Below the pieces are notes generated by a model that worked only from the letters and a program-made list of their open reading frames with translations, was not told the origin of the DNA and did no database searches. DNA of 45,743 bases from a virus, in UHGV virus genome UHGV-0129770. One strand, given 5' to 3'. Position numbers and translations under genes: made by a program. The number at the start of each line of letters is the position of its first letter. The stretch's first letter is position 1. Shown here piece after piece: positions 11,544-41,388 of this stretch.

Positions 11544-11623
11544 GGCACCTTAGAAAAACGGGTGCCGGGATTGGAACCCCGGATAATGTCAAAGGCGACA
11601 CAGACGCCGAAAGCGTCTTTTTT
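11544..11623 (+). ncRNA. candidate c4-like antisense regulatory RNA (about 80 nt)
   Basis: Three hairpins: CGGCACC/GGTGCCG; CCGGG-loop AUUGGAAC-CCCGG; AGACGC-cgaa-GCGTCT followed by a T-run at 11618..11623. The loop is complementary to GTTCCAA at 11726..11732 in the downstream leader. Confidence 0.4.
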
Positions 11624-11808
11624 GTGTCATGCCATCGCACAGCCATACGTAGCGTTTAGCTCAGAGATCAATGGTAGTGCTGGCTGGGCTGCCGAAAGGC
11701 AGGCCGGTTCCCTTTGACGCCGGTAGTTCCAACCCAGTCAGTGCTACCGCCATTGAGATTGGAACCTCACGCGGTAGCTCCTTAACTTAGTCAAAGGAGG
11801 CTGCCAAT

Positions 11809-13730: not shown

Positions 13731-14354
13731 TTATTGCCCGTATTTTTTACACCATTGCTCTGCCATTTGTTTGGCTAAAGGCCCGGCTACTGCACTGTAT
13801 TCTGCTGTTTTACTTTGCACACATGAAGCAGATGGTTTTTTATTTCGCTGCTCGGTTAGTTTGCGCTCATAAGCCATCATGCTATCGAACCCGGCAATAT
13901 CACTTTGGCGAAGCATTCCCTTTTTAACCAAAAATTGCTGCCCCTCGGGCACCAGCGCAAGCATAAAAAGTGGTTGTAATAACTCACCTAATCCTTGCTG
14001 GCGATACACTTCGAATTGCTGCCATCCCTGACTTAATCTGGAAAGAGTATCTTTGGTTGAATAACCTGTTTTTGTTATAGCTTTGTCCGTCAGATATGCT
14101 GTATATGCAAAAACGCAAAAGTCAGTTTTACCAATAAACTGAGTTCCAACAGGCCGTAATGGAATGCCCTCTCTCTTGCAAAAGTCCATAATTGCCGCTT
14201 GTGAATGATCCCCACCAGCGTTATTCATAACCTGCTGCCCTGCCCTGAATTGTGCAGGTAACGCAGTTGCATTGGCTGTATTAACAGATACGCATCCCAA
14301 CATAGCCGCGAGCGCGGTCCCTAAAACCCTTAACTTCACTACACCGTCCTTCAT
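13731..14354 (-). CDS. secreted hypothetical protein (signal peptide)
   Basis: N-terminal hydrophobic signal LGTALAAMLGCVSVNTANA. Confidence 0.5.
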   Translation of the reverse strand: MKDGVVKLRVLGTALAAMLGCVSVNTANATALPAQFRAGQQVMNNAGGDHSQAAIMDFCKREGIPLRPVGTQFIGKTDFCVFAYTAYLTDKAITKTGYSTKDTLSRLSQGWQQFEVYRQQGLGELLQPLFMLALVPEGQQFLVKKGMLRQSDIAGFDSMMAYERKLTEQRNKKPSASCVQSKTAEYSAVAGPLAKQMAEQWCKKYGQ

Positions 14355-15276: not shown

Positions 15277-15411
15277 TCACATTAGTAGCTTTGTTAACTC
15301 CCTCAATACCAGGTAGAAGAGTAACAAAAATATTGACGCGAGTATTTGAGTGGTCAATGAAGCGTTCATAAACAGATCAATTAGCATTAATAATTCGAAG
15401 ATAACATCCAT
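15277..15411 (-). CDS. small hydrophobic protein (44 aa), unlisted ORF; toxin-like
   Basis: Own translation: MDVIFELLMLIDLFMNASLTTQILASIFLLLFYLVLRELTKLLM; GGAG about 8 nt upstream; convergent with 14623..15276. Confidence 0.3.
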   Translation of the reverse strand: MDVIFELLMLIDLFMNASLTTQILASIFLLLFYLVLRELTKLLM

Positions 15412-15604
15412 GTCATTCACTCCGTTTAATTTTTAATCTAATGCCAGCAAATGAAGCTGGCCCCCGCATAAAGATTAATGAAAGTCACTTGTCACCAGTG
15501 AGGGGATTTATGAACCACATCCCCCTGAACTGGTGGCCTGTCTGTTTCTCGCATTTCACACCCTGCATACAGTTTTCCCCAGGTTATGACTGAGGGGCTT
15601 TGTT

Positions 15605-15934
15605 ATGGGCTATAGCAGACTCGACGATAGGTACATTGAAGACGATATTTTTCGTGCGCTGTTTCACCAGGAAATGATTAAGCGGGTATCGGAGTATCAC
15701 TCTGATAATTTCCAGTACACGATAAAGATTGATGAAGTATATCGTTCAGACCTTGCAGCCTACAGGGCGTATGGCAATGCAGATTTGCGCTGGGTATTCC
15801 GGGTGCTGGTGGGCCATGAGTCAGAAATGGAAGAAATGCCCACAGGGACCACGTTAACTCTTCCTGATGTGGCATGGCTGAGGAACAAGATCCGTGATTA
15901 CGCGAGCGCGGAACCGGAGATAGAAAATGCCTGA
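15605..15934 (+). CDS. hypothetical protein, first gene of a two-gene operon
   Basis: ORF track; 8-nt overlap with the downstream gene. Confidence 0.45.
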   Translation: MGYSRLDDRYIEDDIFRALFHQEMIKRVSEYHSDNFQYTIKIDEVYRSDLAAYRAYGNADLRWVFRVLVGHESEMEEMPTGTTLTLPDVAWLRNKIRDYASAEPEIENA

Positions 15935-17120
15935 TTTCCTGAAAAACCAGGACGGGCGCTATATCACTGACGGCCTGTCCTCTAAGGACTTCACGCGTTT
16001 ATTCGACCTTATCAGGAAAGAACAAACCCGTAAGCGCCGGCAAGCTCACCGGACGCTGACGCCAGGTAGACTGAGGAACAAATCCGCCGAAGATATTCTC
16101 AAGTTAGGGAAGAAAAAAGGCGGCACGTTCTTCACGCGAGACGACCTGAAAGGTTTCGAAAAGCTACGGAGTAAAACGCGCGAAAAATATGACAGCAAGA
16201 CGGCTGGCATCACATACGCCCAGCTGGTGGCATCCAGCCAGGCAATCGATATTAAGCGTGCAAATAACGCCGTGGATGACGGATCTGGTATCAAAAGAGC
16301 TACACCCGTATCTCTTCGCCACAATGTGATTAATATCCGCGTAGAAGCATCGGATATATCCGTCCACCAGCACCATATCGTCCGGATACGCTTTGAAGAA
16401 TGGGATCAGATGGTTGATGATATCGCAGAAGACGATAAATCAGCTCTCAAAATCACTAAATCACTGTGCGCCGGGCGAGTGTCTTTCGATTGTGACTGTG
16501 GTCGTCATCAATACTGGTATCGTTACATCGCCACTGCGGGTAACTTTGCCCTGGCACCGCCAAAAGAATACGCCTATCCAAAAGTTCGCAACCCGAAGCT
16601 GCAAGGCGTCGCCTGTAAACACGTGATCCACTCAATGACGCGGTTACAGTCCGCCAGTTGGCAAATGAGTATTGCTCGTGCGCTACAAAAGGCTGCAACG
16701 CAAATTGCATTTGGTGACGATCGCCGCCGTACAACCAAACACTTCTCAAAAGAAGACGAGAAGGAGTTTAATCGCAATCGTAGCAGTAAAACGAACGTTG
16801 ACGCTGCCAAGCGAGAATGGAGGCTCTATCAGAAGCGCCAGGCCGCTTTAAGCACAAAACTGGCAAAGGACAACGGCAAGATTGACAAGCTACGTGACCA
16901 ACTGACCAAGGCCAGAAAGTTGTCAGACGCACAGAAAAAACGGGCGGCAGCAAAAGAAGCGGCGTTGCAACGTGAGAAACAGAAAAACAAGGAGCTTCAG
17001 CAACGCCTGGCCGATCAGTTCGCACTGAAGAAGCAGGCGTTCATTGATGCGCTTGTCATGGCTGGAACACCACCAGCACAAGCTGAAAAAATGTTCATGG
17101 AGTATGTAAAAAAAGCATAA
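15927..17120 (+). CDS. SWIM-type zinc-finger protein with basic N-terminus and Lys/Ala-rich coiled-coil C-terminus
   Basis: CxCx(n)CxH pattern FDCDCGRH...GVACKHVIH; stop lies inside the convergent terminator stem. Confidence 0.5.
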   Translation: MPDFLKNQDGRYITDGLSSKDFTRLFDLIRKEQTRKRRQAHRTLTPGRLRNKSAEDILKLGKKKGGTFFTRDDLKGFEKLRSKTREKYDSKTAGITYAQLVASSQAIDIKRANNAVDDGSGIKRATPVSLRHNVINIRVEASDISVHQHHIVRIRFEEWDQMVDDIAEDDKSALKITKSLCAGRVSFDCDCGRHQYWYRYIATAGNFALAPPKEYAYPKVRNPKLQGVACKHVIHSMTRLQSASWQMSIARALQKAATQIAFGDDRRRTTKHFSKEDEKEFNRNRSSKTNVDAAKREWRLYQKRQAALSTKLAKDNGKIDKLRDQLTKARKLSDAQKKRAAAKEAALQREKQKNKELQQRLADQFALKKQAFIDALVMAGTPPAQAEKMFMEYVKKA

Positions 17121-17147
17121 ACCACACATAGCCTAGTAGTTTATGCT
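17114..17147. terminator. convergent hairpin between the SWIM operon and the AT-rich gene
   Basis: 9-bp stem AGCATAAAC / GTTTATGCT with a 16-nt loop, followed by a T-run. Confidence 0.4.
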
Positions 17148-17153
17148 GGGCTT

Positions 17154-17882
17154 TCATTTTTTTGAAAGATCAATTCCAGTATTATCAAACAAACTGGAAA
17201 TATCAGACACCAATTTATTAAAATGCTTGTCATCATTATAGAATGATGTGCTTTTTATAGCGACTATAAAATCACATAAATCTTGCGGAGATTCAATGCT
17301 AACCCCCTTATTTTTATATAGTTCAATAATACTGCCAACATCAGTATGCAATAGTTTTATCGCGCCACAAATTTCTCGCTGTTTCGTAACCAAGTCATTA
17401 AGTTTATTTTCATTTTCATCTAAGATTTGTTTTGAATATTTAGCGTCATTGGTTGCTTGATTTAACTTTGTTTTCTTTCTTTGCAATTCTATTCTTTTAT
17501 CATAATCAGCAACTTCATCTAAATATCTTATTTCAGTGTATAATTTACTTGTTAGCTTAGATATCTTCAGTGTGAGAACAGGAGCTAACACAGATGCAAA
17601 TACTCCATAAACAAATGGGATTACAACGTGATAAACCCACGGGGATACAATCCAATTATCAATGAACGGGACATTACCACCAACAGAAACAATAGATAAT
17701 GTATATAGGATGTCGTCCTTTGACTTTAATATAATTAAAATATCCTTCCAGTTAAAAATTAGAAATGAAATGACAACATATGCAAAAACCTTGTTAAATA
17801 TTTTATCTTTTATTATTTCAGAAAATGATTTTAGTTCTGTTTCATTTATAGACGGATTATCTTTAACTTTTTCTGACATCAT
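17154..17882 (-). CDS. AT-rich membrane protein with two TM helices and a coiled-coil tail; candidate abortive-infection or exclusion effector
   Basis: ORF track; markedly AT-rich by eye compared with flanks; TM segments VFAYVVISFLIFNW and VYHVVIPFVYGVFASVLAPVLTL; no recognisable family. Confidence 0.5.
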   Translation of the reverse strand: MMSEKVKDNPSINETELKSFSEIIKDKIFNKVFAYVVISFLIFNWKDILIILKSKDDILYTLSIVSVGGNVPFIDNWIVSPWVYHVVIPFVYGVFASVLAPVLTLKISKLTSKLYTEIRYLDEVADYDKRIELQRKKTKLNQATNDAKYSKQILDENENKLNDLVTKQREICGAIKLLHTDVGSIIELYKNKGVSIESPQDLCDFIVAIKSTSFYNDDKHFNKLVSDISSLFDNTGIDLSKK

Positions 17883-17903
17883 AGCTTATCCTGATTACTT
17901 TTA

Positions 17904-18104
17904 TTATGGATAGTTAAAAGATTCAACAGGTGATGGTGGTTGAATTGGGTAATGTTTCTTCTCGTACTCCTCAATGAGAAGACTCATAACCTCAAAGAAA
18001 TCACCTTCCGGAGTATTCATTTCCGGTTCGTTATCGAACATCGGTTCGACCGCACGCAGTGCGGCCTCATAATCTTGTTCTGTACGGATAGGTTTAATGT
18101 TCAT
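17904..18104 (-). pseudogene. truncated HigA-family antitoxin (N-terminal domain only, no HTH)
   Basis: IRTEQDYEAALRAVEPMF...PEGDFFEVMSLLIEEYEKKHYPI matches the N-terminal domain of HigA-type antitoxins as I recall them; ORF stops where the HTH should begin; no cognate toxin. Confidence 0.45.
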
Positions 18105-18117
18105 TAATTACAAAGGA

Positions 18118-18142
18118 AAGCCCACTTGCTAAGTGGGCTTTT
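18118..18142. terminator. bidirectional intrinsic terminator downstream of higA
   Basis: AAAGCCCACTT-gct-AAGTGGGCTTT flanked by an A-run and a T-run. Confidence 0.5.
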
Positions 18143-18160: not shown

Positions 18161-18499
18161 TCAGGCTGCTTTTTTATTCAGGTTCCGCTGAGAAATAAAT
18201 TTTTCAGCAGTATTGATACGACTTAACTCTTCCTGAACGCGCATATCATTTTCGACTTCCCACAGATCTACTGCGGTCTGAAGATTAATCCAAAAATCTA
18301 CAGAAGTATCGAATGCTTTTGCCAGGCGATATGCCATATCCATCGTTAGCTTACGATTGTTATTAACAAGAGCACTTACGGTGTTACGATGAACATGAAG
18401 TATTTCTGCTAACTCGTTGATCTTCAGCTCTAACGGCTCCAGGTATTCGTACAGCAGGATATCACCTACGGTCGTCGGTTTTCTGGTTGCCTGTTTCAT
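18161..18499 (-). CDS. higA: HigA-type antitoxin (XRE-family HTH)
   Basis: GDILLYEYLEPLELKINELAEILHVHRNTVSALVNNNRKLTMDMAYRLAKAFDTSVDFWINLQ is the classic HigA/VapI HTH pattern; sits downstream of the toxin gene. Confidence 0.75.
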   Translation of the reverse strand: MKQATRKPTTVGDILLYEYLEPLELKINELAEILHVHRNTVSALVNNNRKLTMDMAYRLAKAFDTSVDFWINLQTAVDLWEVENDMRVQEELSRINTAEKFISQRNLNKKAA

Positions 18500-18569: not shown

Positions 18570-18872
18570 TTAGTATTTGTGAGGGTCGAGATACAAGTCC
18601 TCGGCCTTTCCGTTAACCCACTTAAAAATTAACCTATATTGCTTATTCACCCTTACTGATGAATAGCCATTTAGCTTCCCTGACAGTTCCTCATACCGAT
18701 TACCTGGTGGTGATCTTAAATCCTTACAGGTAGTTGCGGCATTGATAATGTCCAACTTCCGTGACAATCTCATATGAATATCAGGAGGTATCTTTCTATG
18801 TGGTGTTGAAAATTCAAAAAAATCATCAAGCCACGCATCCCTGAAATCCTTTATGTTAATTTTTTTGGTCAT
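18570..18872 (-). CDS. higB: HigB-type toxin (RelE/ParE superfamily killer protein)
   Basis: C-terminal half ...YRLIFKWVNGKAEDLYLDPHKY fits the HigB family; toxin-first operon order. Confidence 0.7.
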   Translation of the reverse strand: MTKKINIKDFRDAWLDDFFEFSTPHRKIPPDIHMRLSRKLDIINAATTCKDLRSPPGNRYEELSGKLNGYSSVRVNKQYRLIFKWVNGKAEDLYLDPHKY

Positions 18873-19022: not shown

Positions 19023-19826
19023 TTGAGGATGCTTATGGGCCGTTTTGACGAATGGTTTGCTGACGATGCAAACCTGGCAAGTAAGGAGTCAGAACATGAC
19101 AGCACGCAGAGAGAAACGCCAGCGCCGATTGAAGCGAATGCAGGAGGCGCGCCGGAACATGGCAATACCGGTTCGGATTCATTCAGCATTCTGGAAGAGC
19201 AACCCGCCGCCCAAGCTGATAGCCATGATAATTTTGCTGATAGCAACGGTGGCCTTACTCCGGATGCTGGCGAATCAGATATAGCCATACTTCCATCTTC
19301 CCTGGCTGGCAGAGAACCGACTCCACAGTTAAAAGCACGCTATAACGGGCATAAAGCCTTTAACGACCAAATCCGCGCAGACTGGATGCTGATTATTGAA
19401 TCCAGCCCAGACGCGTTTCAGGCTCTCTTATATCGACCAGATGTTGGCACATATGGGGTAGTCAGCGACGAAACAGGAGAAGAGTCATTCACTGAACTGG
19501 ATAACAACCAACGCGAACTGACTTACCAGGAACCTGAAATCGTTTATGTGCTGGATAACCCTGACGGGCGTGACTCTTTCCATGCGATTGACGCAGACGG
19601 TGAGCAGGATGGCTTAACCGATGATGTTCTGATTCTGCGTATTGCAGCAAATAACGTCCCCGTCGGCTCAATTCTTGAATGGAATGAAGAGATGGTAAAC
19701 GGCGTAGCGCGCCGCTGGTGGTACGTGCACCGTATTTTTAGCTACGGCACACAGCATGTTGGTTCGCTTTACTACTGCATACCTGCCAGGAATTTTGATA
19801 CGACTCAAAACGGAGTGATCGAATGA
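19023..19826 (+). CDS. hypothetical acidic protein (start uncertain)
   Basis: ORF track; a 62-aa TM-containing ORF in another frame (ATG 19097, AAGGAGT SD) overlaps the low-complexity N-terminus, so the true start may be downstream. Confidence 0.35.
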   Translation: MRMLMGRFDEWFADDANLASKESEHDSTQRETPAPIEANAGGAPEHGNTGSDSFSILEEQPAAQADSHDNFADSNGGLTPDAGESDIAILPSSLAGREPTPQLKARYNGHKAFNDQIRADWMLIIESSPDAFQALLYRPDVGTYGVVSDETGEESFTELDNNQRELTYQEPEIVYVLDNPDGRDSFHAIDADGEQDGLTDDVLILRIAANNVPVGSILEWNEEMVNGVARRWWYVHRIFSYGTQHVGSLYYCIPARNFDTTQNGVIE

Positions 19827-22283: not shown

Positions 22284-23189
22284 ATGAGATCAGTCGCTTT
22301 CAAAAATATCTTCATCTATCGTCTTTCACGCGAAGTTAGCTGGGATACTGCAGAAGTAAATGCAGCCCTTAGCAAGTTTGTGTTTACCCCATGCGGTTCT
22401 CAGGATATGGCTAAAGCTGGTTGGACCCCCGTTCTTGGCGACAACCTCACCCATGAATACCAGGGTTTTCTTCTGATGCAGCATAAACGAGAGGAAAAAA
22501 TCCTACCTTCTCAAGTACTCAAAGAAGAGTTACAGAAAAAAATCCTGAAACTTGAAGAAGAGCAAGACAGAAAGCTGAAGAAGACCGAAAAAGATTCGCT
22601 GAAGGATGAAGTGCTTCACTCTCTTCTTCCTCGCGCTTTCACGAGAAAATCAGTAGCTAAAATCCTGATAGACCGAAGCAATCATCTGGTTTTTGTCGAG
22701 GCCAGCAGTGCTAAAAAAGCAGAGGATCAGCTGGCTTTGTTACGGAAATCGCTTGGCAGCTTGCCCGTTGTCCCCTTCTCTCCGAAAGACCCATTAGAAC
22801 TGACCATCACTGGCTGGATTAAAAATGGCTTCCCGAACGGTTTCCGTGCCGGTGAGGAAGCGACCTTAAAAGCATTGCTTGATGATGGCGGCGCGGTCCG
22901 CTGCAAAAAAGTGGACCTGCTATCCGACGAGATCATGAGTCATATAGAAGCTGGTAAGGTTGCAACCACAGTTGCGGTTAACTGGCAAGACCGTGCATTT
23001 TTCAGACTGAATGACGATATGAGTATCAAGGCTTTGTCGTTCAGCGACGAATTGTACGACCAGAACGACGATATTGATCGAGAGGATGTTGCGCAACGAT
23101 TTGACGCTGACTTTATCCTGTTTACTGCTGAATTATCCGCGATGTTCACTTCGCTAGTGGAGGCCGTTGGTGGTGAAGCAGAACGTTAA
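22284..23189 (+). CDS. rdgC: recombination-associated protein RdgC homolog
   Basis: Long colinear matches to E. coli RdgC as I recall it: [87 protein letters not shown]. Confidence 0.85.
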
Positions 23190-25461
23190 CCTTAGATATG
23201 GTTCAGTTTGCAGTGGAATTGAAGCAGCGAGCATTGCCTGGGAACCGTTGGGTATGCGTCCGGCGTGGTTTGCTGAAATCGAGCCTTTTCCATCTGCCGT
23301 TCTTGCGCACCGCTGGCCCCATGTCGCCAACCTTGGCGATATGACAAAACTTGCCAAAAAAGTCCTGGCTGGGGAAATCGAATCCCCTGATGTGCTCGTC
23401 GGGGGAACACCTTGTCAGGCATTCAGTATCGCTGGATTACGTGGTGGGCTTGATGATGAGCGTGGCGCGCTAACTTTAAAGTATGTGGAGCTTGCAAATG
23501 CAATTGACGACAAACGGGCTGAGTCATTTCTCAAACCAGCCGTTATCGTCTGGGAAAATGTCCCAGGAGTCTTGTCATCGGCAGATAACGCCTTCGGATG
23601 TTTCCTTGCCGGATTGGCTGGAGAAGATGCGCCATTCGAACCAGGTGCTCGACCTGAATCACGAAAAAGTAACGCGTTCTGGCGGTGGGATGTCAAAACC
23701 AGTTGCCATGCTCCAAAGTGGCCGCAGTGTGGTTGTATTTATGGACCGCAGCGAAAAGTGGCCTGGAGAATCCTTGATGCCCAATACTTCGGAGTGGCAC
23801 AACGACGCCGACGCGTGTTTGTTGTCGCAAGTGCTCGAACAGACCTCGATCCCGCAACGATACTTTTTGAGTTCGAAGGCGTGCGCCGGAATATTGCGCC
23901 GAGCCGAAAAAAGAAGGAAATCGCTTCCGCCATTATTGCAAATGGCGCTGCAATCAGTGGCGAAAGCCTAAATCCATGCCTACACGCTGACATGCCCCCC
24001 GGTATGAAATCGACGAAAGCCGTAAACGCTTTCAGGATGGCGGCATTTGGGGAATATATTGACGATGAAACCGCATCGACAGTAAAGGCAAGAGACTTTA
24101 AAGATGCCACTGACCTTGCCGTTTTTAGCAGCACAGGAGCAGGTTTTTGGTCAGAGGGGCATGGTACATTGCGGGCGCGTGAGCAAGAAAGCCATGAGCA
24201 TCTTGTTACATTAGCTTTTCCTGAGCGTATGAGCGGTACACAACATGCTGCAACTAAGAATACTTCACCATCTCTAATGGCTCAAAATCCAACAGCCGTT
24301 TGCTATGAAGTAAGAAACGCAGAAGTAGCTGTCCGCCGTCTTACCCCTGTCGAATGTGAAAGGCTGCAAGGTTTTCCTGATGGGCATACGTTGATCCCTA
24401 CGGAAAAGCGTAAAACAATTTCCTCAGATGAACTGGCATACCTTCGCAATCACTATCCAGATTTAAGCGAAGAAGAAGCCGCGATGCTCGCTGCTGACGG
24501 GCCGCGTTACAAAGCGATTGGCAACAGCATGGCAGTTCCTGTTATGCAATGGATTGGGTGTCGCATTCTTGCGACTGTGGAAGCTAAACAGCCAAAAACA
24601 ATAAATACCATTACCTACACAAGAAAACTCCGGACTCCGGATGAATATGAACGTCCGATCTTCAAATGGGTAGGCGGTAAATTCTCAGAGTTGCCTACAG
24701 TGCTTGAGCATCTACCACACGGCAAGCGGTTAATAGAACCGTTCGTTGGTGGCGGTTCTGTATTTACGAATGCAGGATTTCGCCACAACCTGCTTAATGA
24801 TATTAACGGTGACCTGATTAACTTCTATCAGACATTGCAGCGAGAAGGACATTCGCTCGTCACGCTGTCATATAGTTTTTTCCAAAATTACAACAACGCT
24901 GACGCTTACCTCGAAGTGCGTGAGGCATTTAACAGAGGAAAGTATGACCAGCTACATCATGCTGCCGCCTTTTTGTACCTTAATCGGCACTGTTTTAATG
25001 GCGTAACGCGGTACAACCAAAATGGCGAGTTCAACGTGGGGTATGGCAAATACAAAGCGCCCTACTTCCCACATGCAGAGATGGAGGCATTTTTGGCTGA
25101 TGACGTACTCAAAAACACGTCCTTTGTATCAGGTGACTTTGCTGGCGTCATCGAGGCGGCTGGTGAAGGCGATGTGATTTTTTGCGATCCGCCGTATGAA
25201 CCGCTGCCGGATACAGAAGGGTTTACCAGTTATTCAGGAAATAGCTTCCGTTTCGACGAACAGAAACGGCTGGTATCTCTATTGGTGGAAGCCCACCAGC
25301 GCGGCGCTAAGGTAGTGATTACAAATAGTGGTGCGCCAAACATCCGTGAACTATATGAAGGAAACGGGTTTAAAGTACATCATATGGCAGCCAGACGGTC
25401 GGTTTCCTGCAAGGCGTCAACACGTGTAGTTGCTAACGATATAATTGCAATAATGAAGTAA
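23167..25461 (+). CDS. bifunctional DNA methyltransferase (N-terminal C5-cytosine domain, C-terminal Dam-like N6-adenine domain)
   Basis: C5 motifs [27 protein letters not shown]; Dam-like [21 protein letters not shown]; no adjacent restriction endonuclease. Confidence 0.8.
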
Positions 25462-25509: not shown

Positions 25510-27171
25510 TTAACCTAACTTCGCCCAAGTATCACGCAGCCCAACGGTGCGGTTAAATACCGGTTTTTCCGCCGTGGAATGGCGGCTGTCGAGGCAGAAA
25601 TAACCTTCACGCTCAAACTGGAATGCTTTACCCGCTACCGCTTCTTTCAGCGACGGTTCAGCAAAGCCCTGTTTGATCACCAGCGATTCCGGGTTAATCA
25701 CCGACAGGAAATCATCCGCAGCACCTGGGTTAGGCACGCTGAACAGACGGTCATACAAACGGATTTCAACCGGCAGCGCATGTGCCGCGCTCACCCAGTG
25801 AATAACACCTTTGACTTTACGACCATCTGCCGGATCTTTGCTTAAGGTGTCGGCGTCATAAGTACAGAAGATGGTGGTGATATTGCCTTCGGCATCTTTC
25901 TCCACGCGTTCTGCCTTAATGACGTAAGCATTACGCAGACGCACTTCTTTACCCAGCACCAGACGTTTGTACTGCTTGTTAGCTTCTTCGCGGAAATCGG
26001 CGCGATCGATCCAAATCTCACCGCTAAACGGCACCTGACGGCTGCCCATTTCCGGTTTGTTCGGATGGTTCGGCATGGTAACCATTTCGCCTTCGCCCTG
26101 ATAGTTTTCGATAACCAGTTTCACCGGATCGATAACCGCCATTGCGCGCGGCGCATTTTCGTTGAGATCTTCACGGATGCAGGATTCCAGCGACGCCATC
26201 TCAATGGTGTTGTCCTGCTTGGTCACGCCGATGCGTTTGCAGAACTCACGAATAGAAGCCGCAGTGTAACCACGACGACGCAGACCGGAAATGGTCGGCA
26301 TACGCGGGTCATCCCAGCCTTCAACGTGCTTGTCGGTCACCAGCAGGTTCAGCTTACGCTTGGACATCACAGTGTATTCCAGATTCAGGCGCGAGAATTC
26401 GTACTGGCGCGGGTGAACAGGAATGGTGATGTTGTCCAGCACCCAGTCGTACAGGCGACGGTTGTCCTGGAACTCAAGCGTACACAGAGAGTGCGTAATA
26501 CCTTCCAGCGCATCGCTGATGCAGTGGGTGAAGTCGTACATCGGGTAGATGCACCACTTGTTGCCAGTCTGGTGGTGTTCAGCAAATTTAATGCGGTACA
26601 GCACCGGATCGCGCATCACGATAAACGGCGAAGCCATGTCGATTTTCGCACGCAGGCAGGCTTTACCTTCTTCAAAACCACCGGCACGCATTTTTTCGAA
26701 CAGCGCCAGGTTCTCTTCAACGCTGCGGTCGCGGTACGGGCTGTTTTTACCCGGTTGCGTCAGGGTGCCGCGATATTCGCGGATCTGTTCCGGCGTCAGT
26801 TCATCAACGTACGCCAGGCCTTTATTGATCAGTTCGATCGCATAGGCGTGGAGCTGATCAAAATAATCGGAGGAGTAACGGACGTTACCAGACCAGTGAA
26901 AACCTAACCACTCTACGTCGTTTTTGATCGACTCAACATACTCGATATCTTCTTTTACCGGGTTAGTGTCGTCGAAACGCAGGTTGCACTGGCCTTTATA
27001 GTCCTGGGCGATCCCGAAGTTCAGGCAGATAGATTTCGCATGGCCAATATGCAGATAGCCATTCGGCTCCGGCGGGAAACGGGTGTGTACTGTGGTGTGC
27101 TTACCACTGGCCAGATCTTCATCGATGATCTGACGAATAAAGTTAGTCGGGCGGGCTTCTGCCTCACTCAT
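25510..27171 (-). CDS. glnS: glutaminyl-tRNA synthetase
   Basis: 553 aa; class I HIGH (PNGYLHIGH) and KMSKS-type (VMSKR) motifs; matches enterobacterial GlnS almost residue for residue from memory; C-terminus here ends ...TWAKLG. Confidence 0.9.
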
Positions 27172-40108: not shown

Positions 40109-40195
40109 ATAGCTTTAATTATGTGTGCTGGAGGGTTGCTCATTTCCCGTCAGCACCCACGCCCTCAACGATAGCGGGTAGGGAAGGTAGCGCAA

Positions 40196-40494
40196 TTTTG
40201 AGGGCATTTTTTACATCATTAATCCATCTGTAATGAAGGCATTCTTTACACATTTCAATAATATCAATCAGTTAACACAGTGAATGATAATAAAAAAGCG
40301 CAATAAGAATGCACGATACGCACGATATTGGTTGAGGGTGATTTTTACATAATCCTTACATATCAATATGTTATATAAAAACACAACTTGCCAATAACAA
40401 GATACATGCAATTAAGATGTAAAAATTGCCCTCAATTGCCGATCGTTAAGGGCAAATTCTACACCTTGAGAGGGGTGTAAAAATTGCCCTTAAG
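40196..40494. repeat. iteron-like repeats downstream of the rep gene, in both orientations
   Basis: TGAGGGCA at 40198, TGAGGGTG at 40333, inverted TTGCCCTCA at 40426, TTAAGGGCAA at 40446, inverted TTGCCCTTAA at 40484 overlapping the rep stop. Confidence 0.6.
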
Positions 40495-41245
40495 ACTGCT
40501 GATAGGTAAATTTTATCCTGGTAACTTTGCCGCCTTCCGTCACCTCTGAGAAGACTATTTTCATTTTTGTATTTTTTTCAATCTCTGCTACAGCCTTCGT
40601 TAAAAAACTTCTCTTAAATTCGGCATACCGCTGATAGCTTTTTGGTAACCCATAACGCTCCCGCATCCATTCGACGCCAAGTATGGCAAAGCCGCTTCCA
40701 TCATCCTTCCTGTACTGGCATAAGGACTCATAAAGCCGCATAGAATAAGGATTTGTAAGGCGAGATACTTCGGTAAAATTCAGCCTTGTGAATCTCTTAT
40801 CAAGCAGAGTAAAAAACGGCATGAGATATGGATTAAGATGAATAATGTAAGTCCCGCGCCGTGGTGAATAGGCATCCTTAATCATCCAAGGATAAGACTC
40901 ATAACTGTCTTCTGATTCGGTCGATTCATCAGGGTTATATATCGTAACTTTCTTCTCGCTAAGACCTGAAATGGCCTTACGAATATCCTTGCTGGCTTCA
41001 GCAGAGGGCAAATTATACATCTCTGCATATTCGTTGACCGTCAACTCACAGGCACCTGAACCAAGAACGCCATCCTTAGAAGCATAGCGAAGTCTTCCCA
41101 CCACAATAAACAACAGTCGCTTTTGGTCGCGAGTCAGGTGATAAGCAGCCTCCGTGATCTCATTGGCTTGTGCCAAACTACGACTAATAGGTGTCGCTGA
41201 CTCAATCAGGCTGACGGCTTTTGCTGTTAATTCCGCTCTGTTCAT
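40490..41245 (-). CDS. RepE/RepA-type (Rep_3 family) plasmid replication initiator
   Basis: ITEAAYHLTRDQKRLLFIVV, AEASKDIRKA, YESYPWMIKDAYSPRRGTYIIHLNPYLMPFF, NPYSMRLYESLCQYRKDDGSG are colinear with F-plasmid RepE as I recall it; start set to ATG 41245 (251 aa) rather than TTG 41278. Confidence 0.8.
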   Translation of the reverse strand: MNRAELTAKAVSLIESATPISRSLAQANEITEAAYHLTRDQKRLLFIVVGRLRYASKDGVLGSGACELTVNEYAEMYNLPSAEASKDIRKAISGLSEKKVTIYNPDESTESEDSYESYPWMIKDAYSPRRGTYIIHLNPYLMPFFTLLDKRFTRLNFTEVSRLTNPYSMRLYESLCQYRKDDGSGFAILGVEWMRERYGLPKSYQRYAEFKRSFLTKAVAEIEKNTKMKIVFSEVTEGGKVTRIKFTYQQS

Positions 41246-41268
41246 AACCCTGTGTGATCCTTCAAATG

Positions 41269-41388
41269 GTGAGGGCAATTTTTACATCACTTTGAGGGCA
41301 ATTACTACACCTTTTGAGGGCAAATCTTACACCTTCTGAGGGCAAATCTTACACCGATCGTATCTAATTGAGGGCAAATCTTACACCA
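41269..41388. repeat. array of five direct iterons upstream of rep
   Basis: TGAGGGCAA(A/T)TCTTACACC-like units at 41270, 41293, 41315, 41337 and 41369, about 22-bp period. Confidence 0.75.

Follow-up and report, generated by a model that had tools for sequence, protein, structure and literature searches.

The viral genome UHGV-0129770, analysed here over its whole stretch of 45,743 nucleotides (the window), is a D6-like, P1-type phage-plasmid that carries an accessory ('moron') gene for a 242-amino-acid (aa) membrane-anchored helical protein between two of its tail genes. The family to which this gene, the target, belongs is real, unnamed and previously undescribed, and consists of about 50 clusters at 50% identity. 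From the sequence and its contexts our tentative reading, held with somewhat less than even confidence, is that the target is an autonomous accessory membrane protein that acts in conflict between phages and mobile elements. As a new anti-phage or exclusion factor it is a reasonable candidate, a hypothesis for which the hypervariability of the gene, its distribution on temperate elements and plasmids only, and its toxin-antitoxin (TA) and defence neighbours would be circumstantial support.

In P1 the genes 26-25-7-24-6-5 are contiguous, and 25 and 7 are separated by 3 nt. D6-like elements have an opposite-strand island between the homologues of these two genes, and in the window, which is 94% identical in this region to Escherichia phage D6, a P1-type plasmid prophage, the island runs higB, higA, a 66-aa stub of HigA and, last, the target. 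The island, its flanks and the segments of the target are as follows.

15927-17120, plus strand: homologue of P1 tail gene 25, one flank of the slot
17130-17152, no strand assigned: convergent hairpin, flanked by the 3' ends of gene 25 and of the target; it forms the right-hand limit of the hypervariable cassette
17154-17882, minus strand: the target gene, 242 aa, membrane-anchored helical protein, window-type allele of the PHROG 8191 family
17157-17309, minus strand: codons 192-242 of the target, variable three-helix C-terminal domain (head), 15-45% identity between alleles
17310-17561, minus strand: codons 108-191, a long amphipathic helix that may form a cytoplasmic coiled-coil stalk; variability peaks here, alleles sharing 10-30% identity
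17562-17810, minus strand: codons 25-107, membrane module, the only part alignable at the DNA level between alleles, dN/dS (nonsynonymous over synonymous divergence) 0.09-0.31
17889-17892, minus strand: AGGA, Shine-Dalgarno-like, 6 nt 5' of the ATG and within the 21-nt spacer after the stub
17904-18104, minus strand: HigA stub, 66 aa, N-terminal half of a K-12-type HigA, the helix-turn-helix (HTH) half lost
18117-18141, minus strand: hairpin with an 11-bp stem between higA and the stub, terminator-like, with a weak T-tract in the island direction
18161-18499, minus strand: HigA antitoxin (TIGR02607, 7.9e-30; HTH_3)
18570-18872, minus strand: HigB toxin of the Rts1/HigB-like type (PF05015, 4.8e-35)
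19023-19826, plus strand: homologue of P1 tail gene 7, the other flank of the slot

The target is an open reading frame (ORF) with an ATG start, and its length and coordinates are as first described. Two features of a moron are present, the slot between genes that are adjacent in P1 and the distinct base composition (GC content 0.292 as compared to 0.474), and hairpins bound the cassette. An earlier note on this DNA had placed the gene directly downstream of a truncated antitoxin and next to an intact higBA, and both descriptions agree with the profile matches; the stub is 89% identical to the 119-aa HigA of relatives (E. coli K-12-type), and 21 nt separate its stop from the start of the target. 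The stub matches positions 1-65 of the 402-position PD-Lambda-2_B profile (PADLOC, 2.5e-16) as well as a 66-residue PHROG of its own, 10398 (1.6e-42), which implies that the N-terminal toxin-binding-type domain recurs as a separate small ORF. The same note had suspected a hotspot for accessory genes, and the cargo of the 25|7 slot indeed varies between the comparison loci (given L-numbers here). Most elements have a TA module together with a family member, L045 has a K-12-type higBA alone, the diverged P1-like element L031 a family member alone, L046 an AlpA-like (AlpA-family) gene alone, and L047 an unrelated gene for a 179-aa 'stationary phase growth adaptation protein' that matches nothing in Pfam or PADLOC. 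The slot is a general cargo hotspot inside the tail operon.

The GC content of the target, 0.231 at third codon positions, is the lowest of any 729-nt stretch in the 45.7 kb (z = -5.3), the next non-overlapping one having 0.379. A windowed GC calculation thus shows a clear compositional break, and the AT-richness relative to the flanks that the earlier note had seen by eye is real. The note had taken it as the signature of a recent horizontal insertion, and this part we cannot follow. A GC deficit of 0.05-0.21 relative to the host locus was present in all 17 of the family members checked, so that the AT-richness is a trait of the family and not a sign of recent insertion, and the 25|7 slot holds a gene of the family throughout the D6-like lineage. 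The recent events in the slot are allele replacement and mosaic recombination, not the arrival of the gene. Among close alleles the ratio of nonsynonymous to synonymous polymorphism (pN/pS) is about 0.2-0.3, and for tail gene 25 it is 0.02-0.19. The pN/pS and dN/dS values, together with residues that stay invariant between members sharing 17-25% identity, show that the target is a genuine coding gene under selection. The idea that its AT-rich mRNA could be a special substrate of HigB was considered and dropped, AAA codons amounting to 7.4% in the target and reaching 7.8% in another gene.

The variability of the gene is extreme. A comparison of 28 D6-like loci gave identities of mostly 96-100% for the tail genes on either side and for the TA genes, and the target slot holds at least seven allele classes, at 96-100, 59, 44-47, 40-41, 36-38, 35 and 29% aa identity, orf73 of D6 being the 59%-identical allele. 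The divergent tract begins near the end of the HigA stub and stops at the convergent hairpin before gene 25, and the nucleotide identity falls from 99-100% to 54-68% within about 50-100 nt. Identity between alleles is 45-95% in the membrane module and far lower in the stalk and the head, as listed above. Close pairs of alleles are mosaic, with segment identities of, for instance, 84/69/96% and 95/82/97%, and the synonymous divergence (dS) varies several-fold across the segments of one pair (0.07, 0.93, 0.89 and 0.14). Such jumps in dS point to intragenic recombination and not to point-mutational positive selection. Positive selection along the whole gene is unsupported, with pN/pS below 1; the local dN/dS above 1 in two short segments rests on few changes.

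The family is confined to temperate elements and plasmids, which fits a function in the carried state. D6 was the sole match among 50,697 phage records, while 148 PLSDB plasmids carry the family (81 in Escherichia, 46 in Klebsiella, 16 in Salmonella, 3 in Enterobacter and 2 in Shigella). It is present in 78 of 5,426 complete E. coli genomes, as a single copy and plasmid-borne in all of them, and a search of 185,579 species-representative genomes with a single short peptide pattern found one locus. The target stretch itself matches 71 PLSDB plasmids at 95-100% identity, about 87-95 kb in size apart from one 216-kb record, and non-mobilisable in nearly all cases. The window-type allele is intact in 10 of the 10 loci examined, and 69 PLSDB plasmids have it at 95% identity or more. 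Inactivated members were also observed, truncated by the insertion sequences (IS) IS903B or IS110 in Klebsiella plasmids or present as split ORFs (L029 and L024); repeated inactivation of this kind is typical of costly accessory genes. Two stand-alone copies adjoin defence genes, one an OLD-family ATPase (HEC-04/AriA/GajA-like, 1e-33) with a cytosine methyltransferase, the other a full-length Tmn (1312 bits). The remaining contexts are uninformative on defence, and the adjacencies are raw counts.

Five different TA modules were found directly 5' of family members, on the same strand and with spacers of 14-117 nt. They are a PF09907 HigB with the 119-aa K-12-type HigA, a PF05015 HigB/HigA with an orphan 119-aa HigA, a ParE with an HTH protein, TacA/TacT, and a distant HigB with a 139-aa HTH protein. 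A 1,731-bp block, reaching from about 190 bp 5' of higB to 2 nt beyond the end of the member ORF, is common to L028 (a P1-like element) and Klebsiella IncFIB plasmids at 95% identity, and nothing else is shared between them; judging from this, the higB-HTH-member block has moved intact between a phage-plasmid and Klebsiella plasmids. The trio is flanked by IS66/IS903B on one side and histidine-utilisation genes on the other in L043, L044 and 40+ Klebsiella IncFIB plasmids, and in most of these Klebsiella records IS903B or IS110 cuts the member at about codon 137-173, with higB and the HTH gene intact. In the Klebsiella/L028 trio a perfect 14-bp AT-rich inverted repeat, ATAACTAAATCACC/GGTGATTTAGTTAT, lies in the spacer that separates the HTH gene from the member (L043, 6881-6949); it may be bound by the HTH protein as an operator or act as a weak terminator. 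At this position D6-type alleles carry another hairpin, rich in GC.

The linkage to TA modules is facultative. Stand-alone members occur in at least eight contexts (L007, L031, L032, L033, L034, L036, L039 and L041), spread over plasmids, other prophages and the chromosome of an Enterobacter. The type of allele is independent of the type of TA module, the 46% and the 37% alleles each being found with both TA configurations, and the orphan K-12-type HigA decays, to a stub or to split ORFs, next to an intact member. The stand-alone members, the slot with a TA module only, and the TA genes that are kept where the member is truncated imply that the member is no obligatory part of a TA system; the TA module often accompanies it and probably drives its transcription, without being an obligate partner. 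In the D6 lineage the likely course of events, as read from the present arrangements, is that a K-12-type higB-higA-member trio had its higB replaced by an Rts1-type higBA, after which the orphan HigA eroded. In the window allele the replacement also took away a terminator-like hairpin, a 62-bp spacer and a promoter-like site (9/12), which in D6-type alleles sits in the 3' half of higA, DNA that is absent from the window. No promoter-like site of 8/12 or better lies within 220 nt 5' of the target in the window allele. Since no promoter of its own was detected, we infer read-through and translation starting 21 nt after the stub, and the target would then be co-transcribed with higBA.

The protein has hydrophobic peaks on the Kyte-Doolittle scale at aa 34-52 and 86-104, conserved across the family, which agree with the two N-terminal transmembrane (TM) helices that the earlier note had proposed. 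The AlphaFold2 model (30 sequences; mean local confidence, pLDDT, 73.6; predicted template-modelling score, pTM, 0.36) has helices at 13-43 and 45-53, a short hairpin, a single helix at 81-191, which carries on from the second hydrophobic segment, and three short helices at the C-terminus. The long helix of what had been described as a coiled-coil or charged tail is thereby borne out. The coiled coil itself is plausible and not proven, because a 3.5-residue hydrophobic periodicity is present above shuffles in aa 108-191 (p ~0.015) while the 3.6-residue peak is stronger. The membrane module carries the motif KDKxFNKxFxYxxxSFLxxNW..I.I..KSK.DI, followed by a short loop and the second hydrophobic helix with P89, G93 and P101, and the head has a weakly conserved motif, Y..G.KIE..DL..FL. 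There are 4 lysine or arginine residues among the 15 that follow helix 2 and none among the 15 before it, and by the positive-inside rule both termini, the stalk and the head would be located in the cytoplasm. The target is thus a predicted inner-membrane protein with both termini cytoplasmic.

The phrog_8191 profile matches the target from end to end (1-242 of 242, 6.6e-121). Among 25 aligned members PHROG 8191 was matched by all, 13369 by 19 and 4780 by 17, and all three carry the label 'unknown function'. A word-indexed search returned close relatives only, and an exhaustive profile search of 1.84 billion representatives gave 50 clusters at E < 1e-3, 22 of them at < 1e-10; the proteins of these clusters (50% identity level) are mostly 205-270 aa long. 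In alignments of 25 and 30 members N44, P89, G93 and P101 are invariant, also across members sharing 17-25% identity, and S39 and S54 are nearly so. Pairwise identity averages 0.42 and 0.34 in the two hydrophobic helices and 0.13-0.18 elsewhere. The earlier statement that the protein could not be assigned to any family therefore holds for named families, while the protein does belong to a real, unnamed one, PHROG 8191/13369/4780. Searches of the literature by accession, by PHROG identifier and on third genes of HigBA turned up no account of the PHROG 8191 family.

Other searches gave little. The window protein has no match in Pfam, NCBIfam or PADLOC, in line with the earlier remark that it lacks a recognisable catalytic motif, and the 25-30 members gave only scattered coiled-coil artefacts (such as JetC, LmuB, SMC, ZapB and BRE1). 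A sequence profile search of the PDB returned generic coiled coils alone, at E ≥ 0.013, and the fold libraries nothing above generic coiled-coil noise. A confident hit to a housekeeping membrane protein, the outcome that the note had said would speak against its proposal, was found in none of Pfam, NCBIfam, PDB and the fold libraries. Direct profile comparisons with RexA/B, SieA/B, P22 gp17, HK97 gp15/gp22/gp23, Rz and holins were negative.

If the target is a factor in phage and mobile-element conflict, it would act alone in the lysogenic or plasmid-bearing cell. The conserved membrane module may serve as the anchor or the effector, for example as an oligomer that perturbs the membrane or an entry route, and specificity would reside in the cytoplasmic stalk and head, which diversify fast and would recognise a cue derived from the invader. 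In D6-like elements expression would come about via the neighbouring TA operon. A wider version of this model, which we regard as possible and rather unlikely, would make the whole family single-protein membrane-anchored sensor-effectors of Enterobacterales phage-plasmids, prophages and plasmids, in which the two-helix module carries out exclusion or abortive infection, the recombining stalk and head set the specificity, and the interchangeable RelE/ParE/GNAT TA operons are a stress-responsive expression platform. Several observations weigh against a role in conflict. There is no homology to a known defence, exclusion, abortive-infection, holin or spanin protein in PADLOC or in the profile comparisons, and guilt by association is a weak argument, TA and defence genes being common in the accessory regions of plasmids and prophages generally. 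No promoter was found in the window allele, which makes its expression in the lysogen uncertain. The fast divergence of the tail may reflect low constraint on a coiled coil, the gene-wide pN/pS being below 1, and the topology and the oligomeric state are predictions, the pTM of the monomer model being only 0.36.

The position behind TA operons could also mean that the target is the obligate third component of a tripartite TA-based abortive-infection system, a TA module with a membrane effector or sensor. The five modules directly 5' of members and the shared 1,731-bp block speak for this, and there are precedents in PD-lambda-2C (PMC9519451) and HigC (PMC11980606), third genes that are needed for defence. 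We nevertheless find such a system distinctly unlikely, given the members without any TA module, the L045 slot with a TA module and no member, the Klebsiella plasmids that retain higB and the HTH gene with the member cut by IS elements, the independent assortment of alleles and TA types, and the adjacent K-12-type HigA that decays while the member is intact. The fold of the partner antitoxin also varies (Xre-HTH in some cases, the ribbon-helix-helix TacA in another), and in Caulobacter HigX, a membrane protein encoded downstream of higBA, acts independently (PMC13384398). Another relation to the neighbouring antitoxin would be that the target is a membrane toxin restrained by the HTH protein upstream, orf72 and orf73 of D6 forming a two-gene TA-like pair. 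Small hydrophobic proteins are often toxic, and the 119-aa HigA-type HTH protein is directly 5' of the member in D6 and many relatives. In the ancestral arrangement, however, the 119-aa protein is the cognate antitoxin of the preceding PF09907 HigB, stand-alone copies have no HTH neighbour, and the window allele, without the HTH half, is intact and common (the 10 loci and 69 plasmids given above), which makes this pair very improbable indeed.

A classical superinfection-exclusion protein of the inner membrane, blocking the genome entry of P1/D6-like or other phages, would suit a small membrane protein encoded by a moron in or next to the tail genes and antisense to the late operon. There are parallels in HK97 gp15, from a moron of the tail operon, and in P22 sieA, on the opposite strand after the ejection-protein genes. 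Of the sim exclusion genes of P1, D6-like elements are reported to possess simB alone (PMC6799933), which leaves room for another exclusion function, and the allelic hypervariability fits competition between related elements. Against this, the family shows no profile similarity to SieA, SieB or HK97 gp15 (HHalign probability at most 2%, hmmsearch at most 5.5 bits), the large variable part is predicted to be cytoplasmic, which suits the sensing of an intracellular cue more than the interception of an ejection apparatus, the alleles differ with no matching change in the adjacent tail genes (96-100% identical), and the family is also found on non-phage plasmids and one chromosome. We therefore give it a low probability. 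A role outside conflict altogether is in our view unlikely as well, if less remote; the protein might organise the membrane or tether the plasmid prophage, modulate lysis or the assembly of virions, or serve in a lysogenic conversion unrelated to phages. A membrane anchor joined to a long coiled coil in the cytoplasm is what a generic scaffold looks like, the sole sequence and structure matches are to generic coiled coils (ZapB, SMC and ATP-synthase b), the gene sits among tail genes, and it has no match in the defence library. The gene is, however, on the strand opposite to the late operon, and it is missing in P1 and in some D6-like relatives whose tail genes are all present, so morphogenesis does not require it. 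It lies outside any lysis cassette, with no similarity to holins or spanins (HK97 and P22 holins, Rz), it is frequently inactivated in other elements, and its extreme allelic diversity in near-identical elements is unusual for a structural or housekeeping gene.

As a putative conflict factor the target resembles prophage-encoded membrane morons and two-TM defence effectors in kind, and it belongs to no named family. P22 SieA, T4 Imm and HK97 gp15 are inner-membrane proteins that block the entry of phage genomes. Like the target, gp15 is encoded by a moron in the tail region of a temperate phage, lacks an enzymatic domain and has a charged helical tail after a hydrophobic helix. It differs in being 62 aa long with one TM helix and in lying on the same strand as the tail genes, and the HHalign probability is 1.6%; the target has 242 aa, two hydrophobic helices and a helix of about 110 residues. 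P22 SieA and SieB, lambda SieB and RexB are membrane proteins expressed from the prophage that protect the lysogen, and sieA, like the target, is on the opposite strand and adjoins virion genes. Unlike the target none of the SieA, SieB and RexB proteins has a long coiled-coil tail, and again no sequence or profile similarity was found (HHalign probability at most 2%). RexB of lambda moreover has four TM helices and requires RexA; no similarity to RexA or RexB was detected, and no RexA-like neighbour is present among the ORFs of the window.

HigBAC/CmdTAC and PD-lambda-2 share with the target locus a RelE/HigB-type TA operon with a third gene downstream. The third gene of HigBAC/CmdTAC is a SecB-like chaperone strictly linked to its TA module, while no SecB or chaperone domain is found in the target (Pfam, NCBIfam and PADLOC), and its family occurs also alone, as do the TA modules without it. 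PD-lambda-2 consists of a HigB-like protein, a HigA-peptidase and a P4-antitoxin-like protein. The stub shares the N-terminal domain of PD-Lambda-2_B and is alone in matching this system, the target and HigB having no PADLOC match. Caulobacter HigX is comparable in arrangement: it is membrane-associated, encoded directly downstream of higBA without conserved synteny, and TA-independent (PMC13384398). It is also a DNA-binding transcription factor that is ancestral to alpha-proteobacteria, unlike the target, which is mobile, AT-rich and without a DNA-binding domain. By analogy we favour as a mechanistic model the CBASS-type two-TM (SLATT-like) and other membrane-disrupting abortive-infection effectors, which have in common with the target a two-helix membrane module, conserved polar, glycine and proline residues, and neighbourhoods of the conflict type. 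No Pfam match to SLATT was found in 25 members, and no cyclase or other signalling partner near any locus; the PADLOC '2TM effector' profile gave one weak match (4e-4) in 1 of 25 members, its position not located.

D6-like phage-plasmids are present in about 1-2% of complete E. coli genomes, and also in Salmonella, Shigella and Klebsiella, and they are clinically relevant as vehicles of resistance genes. A hypervariable gene for a membrane-anchored protein, at a constant position in otherwise near-identical elements, is an obvious candidate for the factor on which competition among phage-plasmids, other phages and plasmids turns. Should the target prove to be a defence or exclusion factor, the catalogue would gain a new single-gene family, the seven or more natural alleles and their mosaics would be a ready specificity panel, and the locus could illustrate the reuse of TA operons to express effectors encoded next to them; a modular architecture of a TA-driven membrane effector would, if true, be undescribed so far. 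If it is not, the analysis still documents an unannotated protein family and a moron hotspot in the P1-type tail operon.

Elsewhere the window encodes a Rep3 initiator, glnS, a fused Dcm/Dam methylase and a Ref-type nuclease, and the main features are the following.

11545-11754, plus strand: isrK Hfq-binding RNA (62.7 bits), then C4 antisense RNA (77.1 bits), the P1-type immI immunity region, 5' of icd/ant-like genes
23167-25461: fused C5-cytosine/N6-adenine methyltransferase, 764 aa, adjoining glnS
25510-27171, minus strand: complete glutaminyl-tRNA synthetase gene (PF00749, 1.5e-129)
40490-41278, minus strand: Rep3-type replication initiator gene

This gene content, the identity to D6 and the immI elements together imply that the window is a D6-like (P1-type) phage-plasmid; a glutaminyl-tRNA synthetase gene has been reported for D6-like elements (PMC6799933). 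No site for the P1 C1-operator consensus was found within the window. Its second-lowest GC region (0.379, 40188-41278) overlaps the Rep3 initiator gene and presumably iterons too. A second variable TA slot is situated a few kb from the target, where some relatives have an extra RelE/HigA-like pair between the homologues of mat and gene 26 (L019, 7394-7687; L027, 8136-8713; L047, 3642-4213); in the window there are about 330 nt only between these genes (15277-15604). A 207-aa ORF at 13731-14354 on the minus strand has a signal-like hydrophobic N-terminus and no Pfam match. D6 carries a larger simB-like gene at this place, and the ORF may be a diverged or shortened exclusion-related gene.

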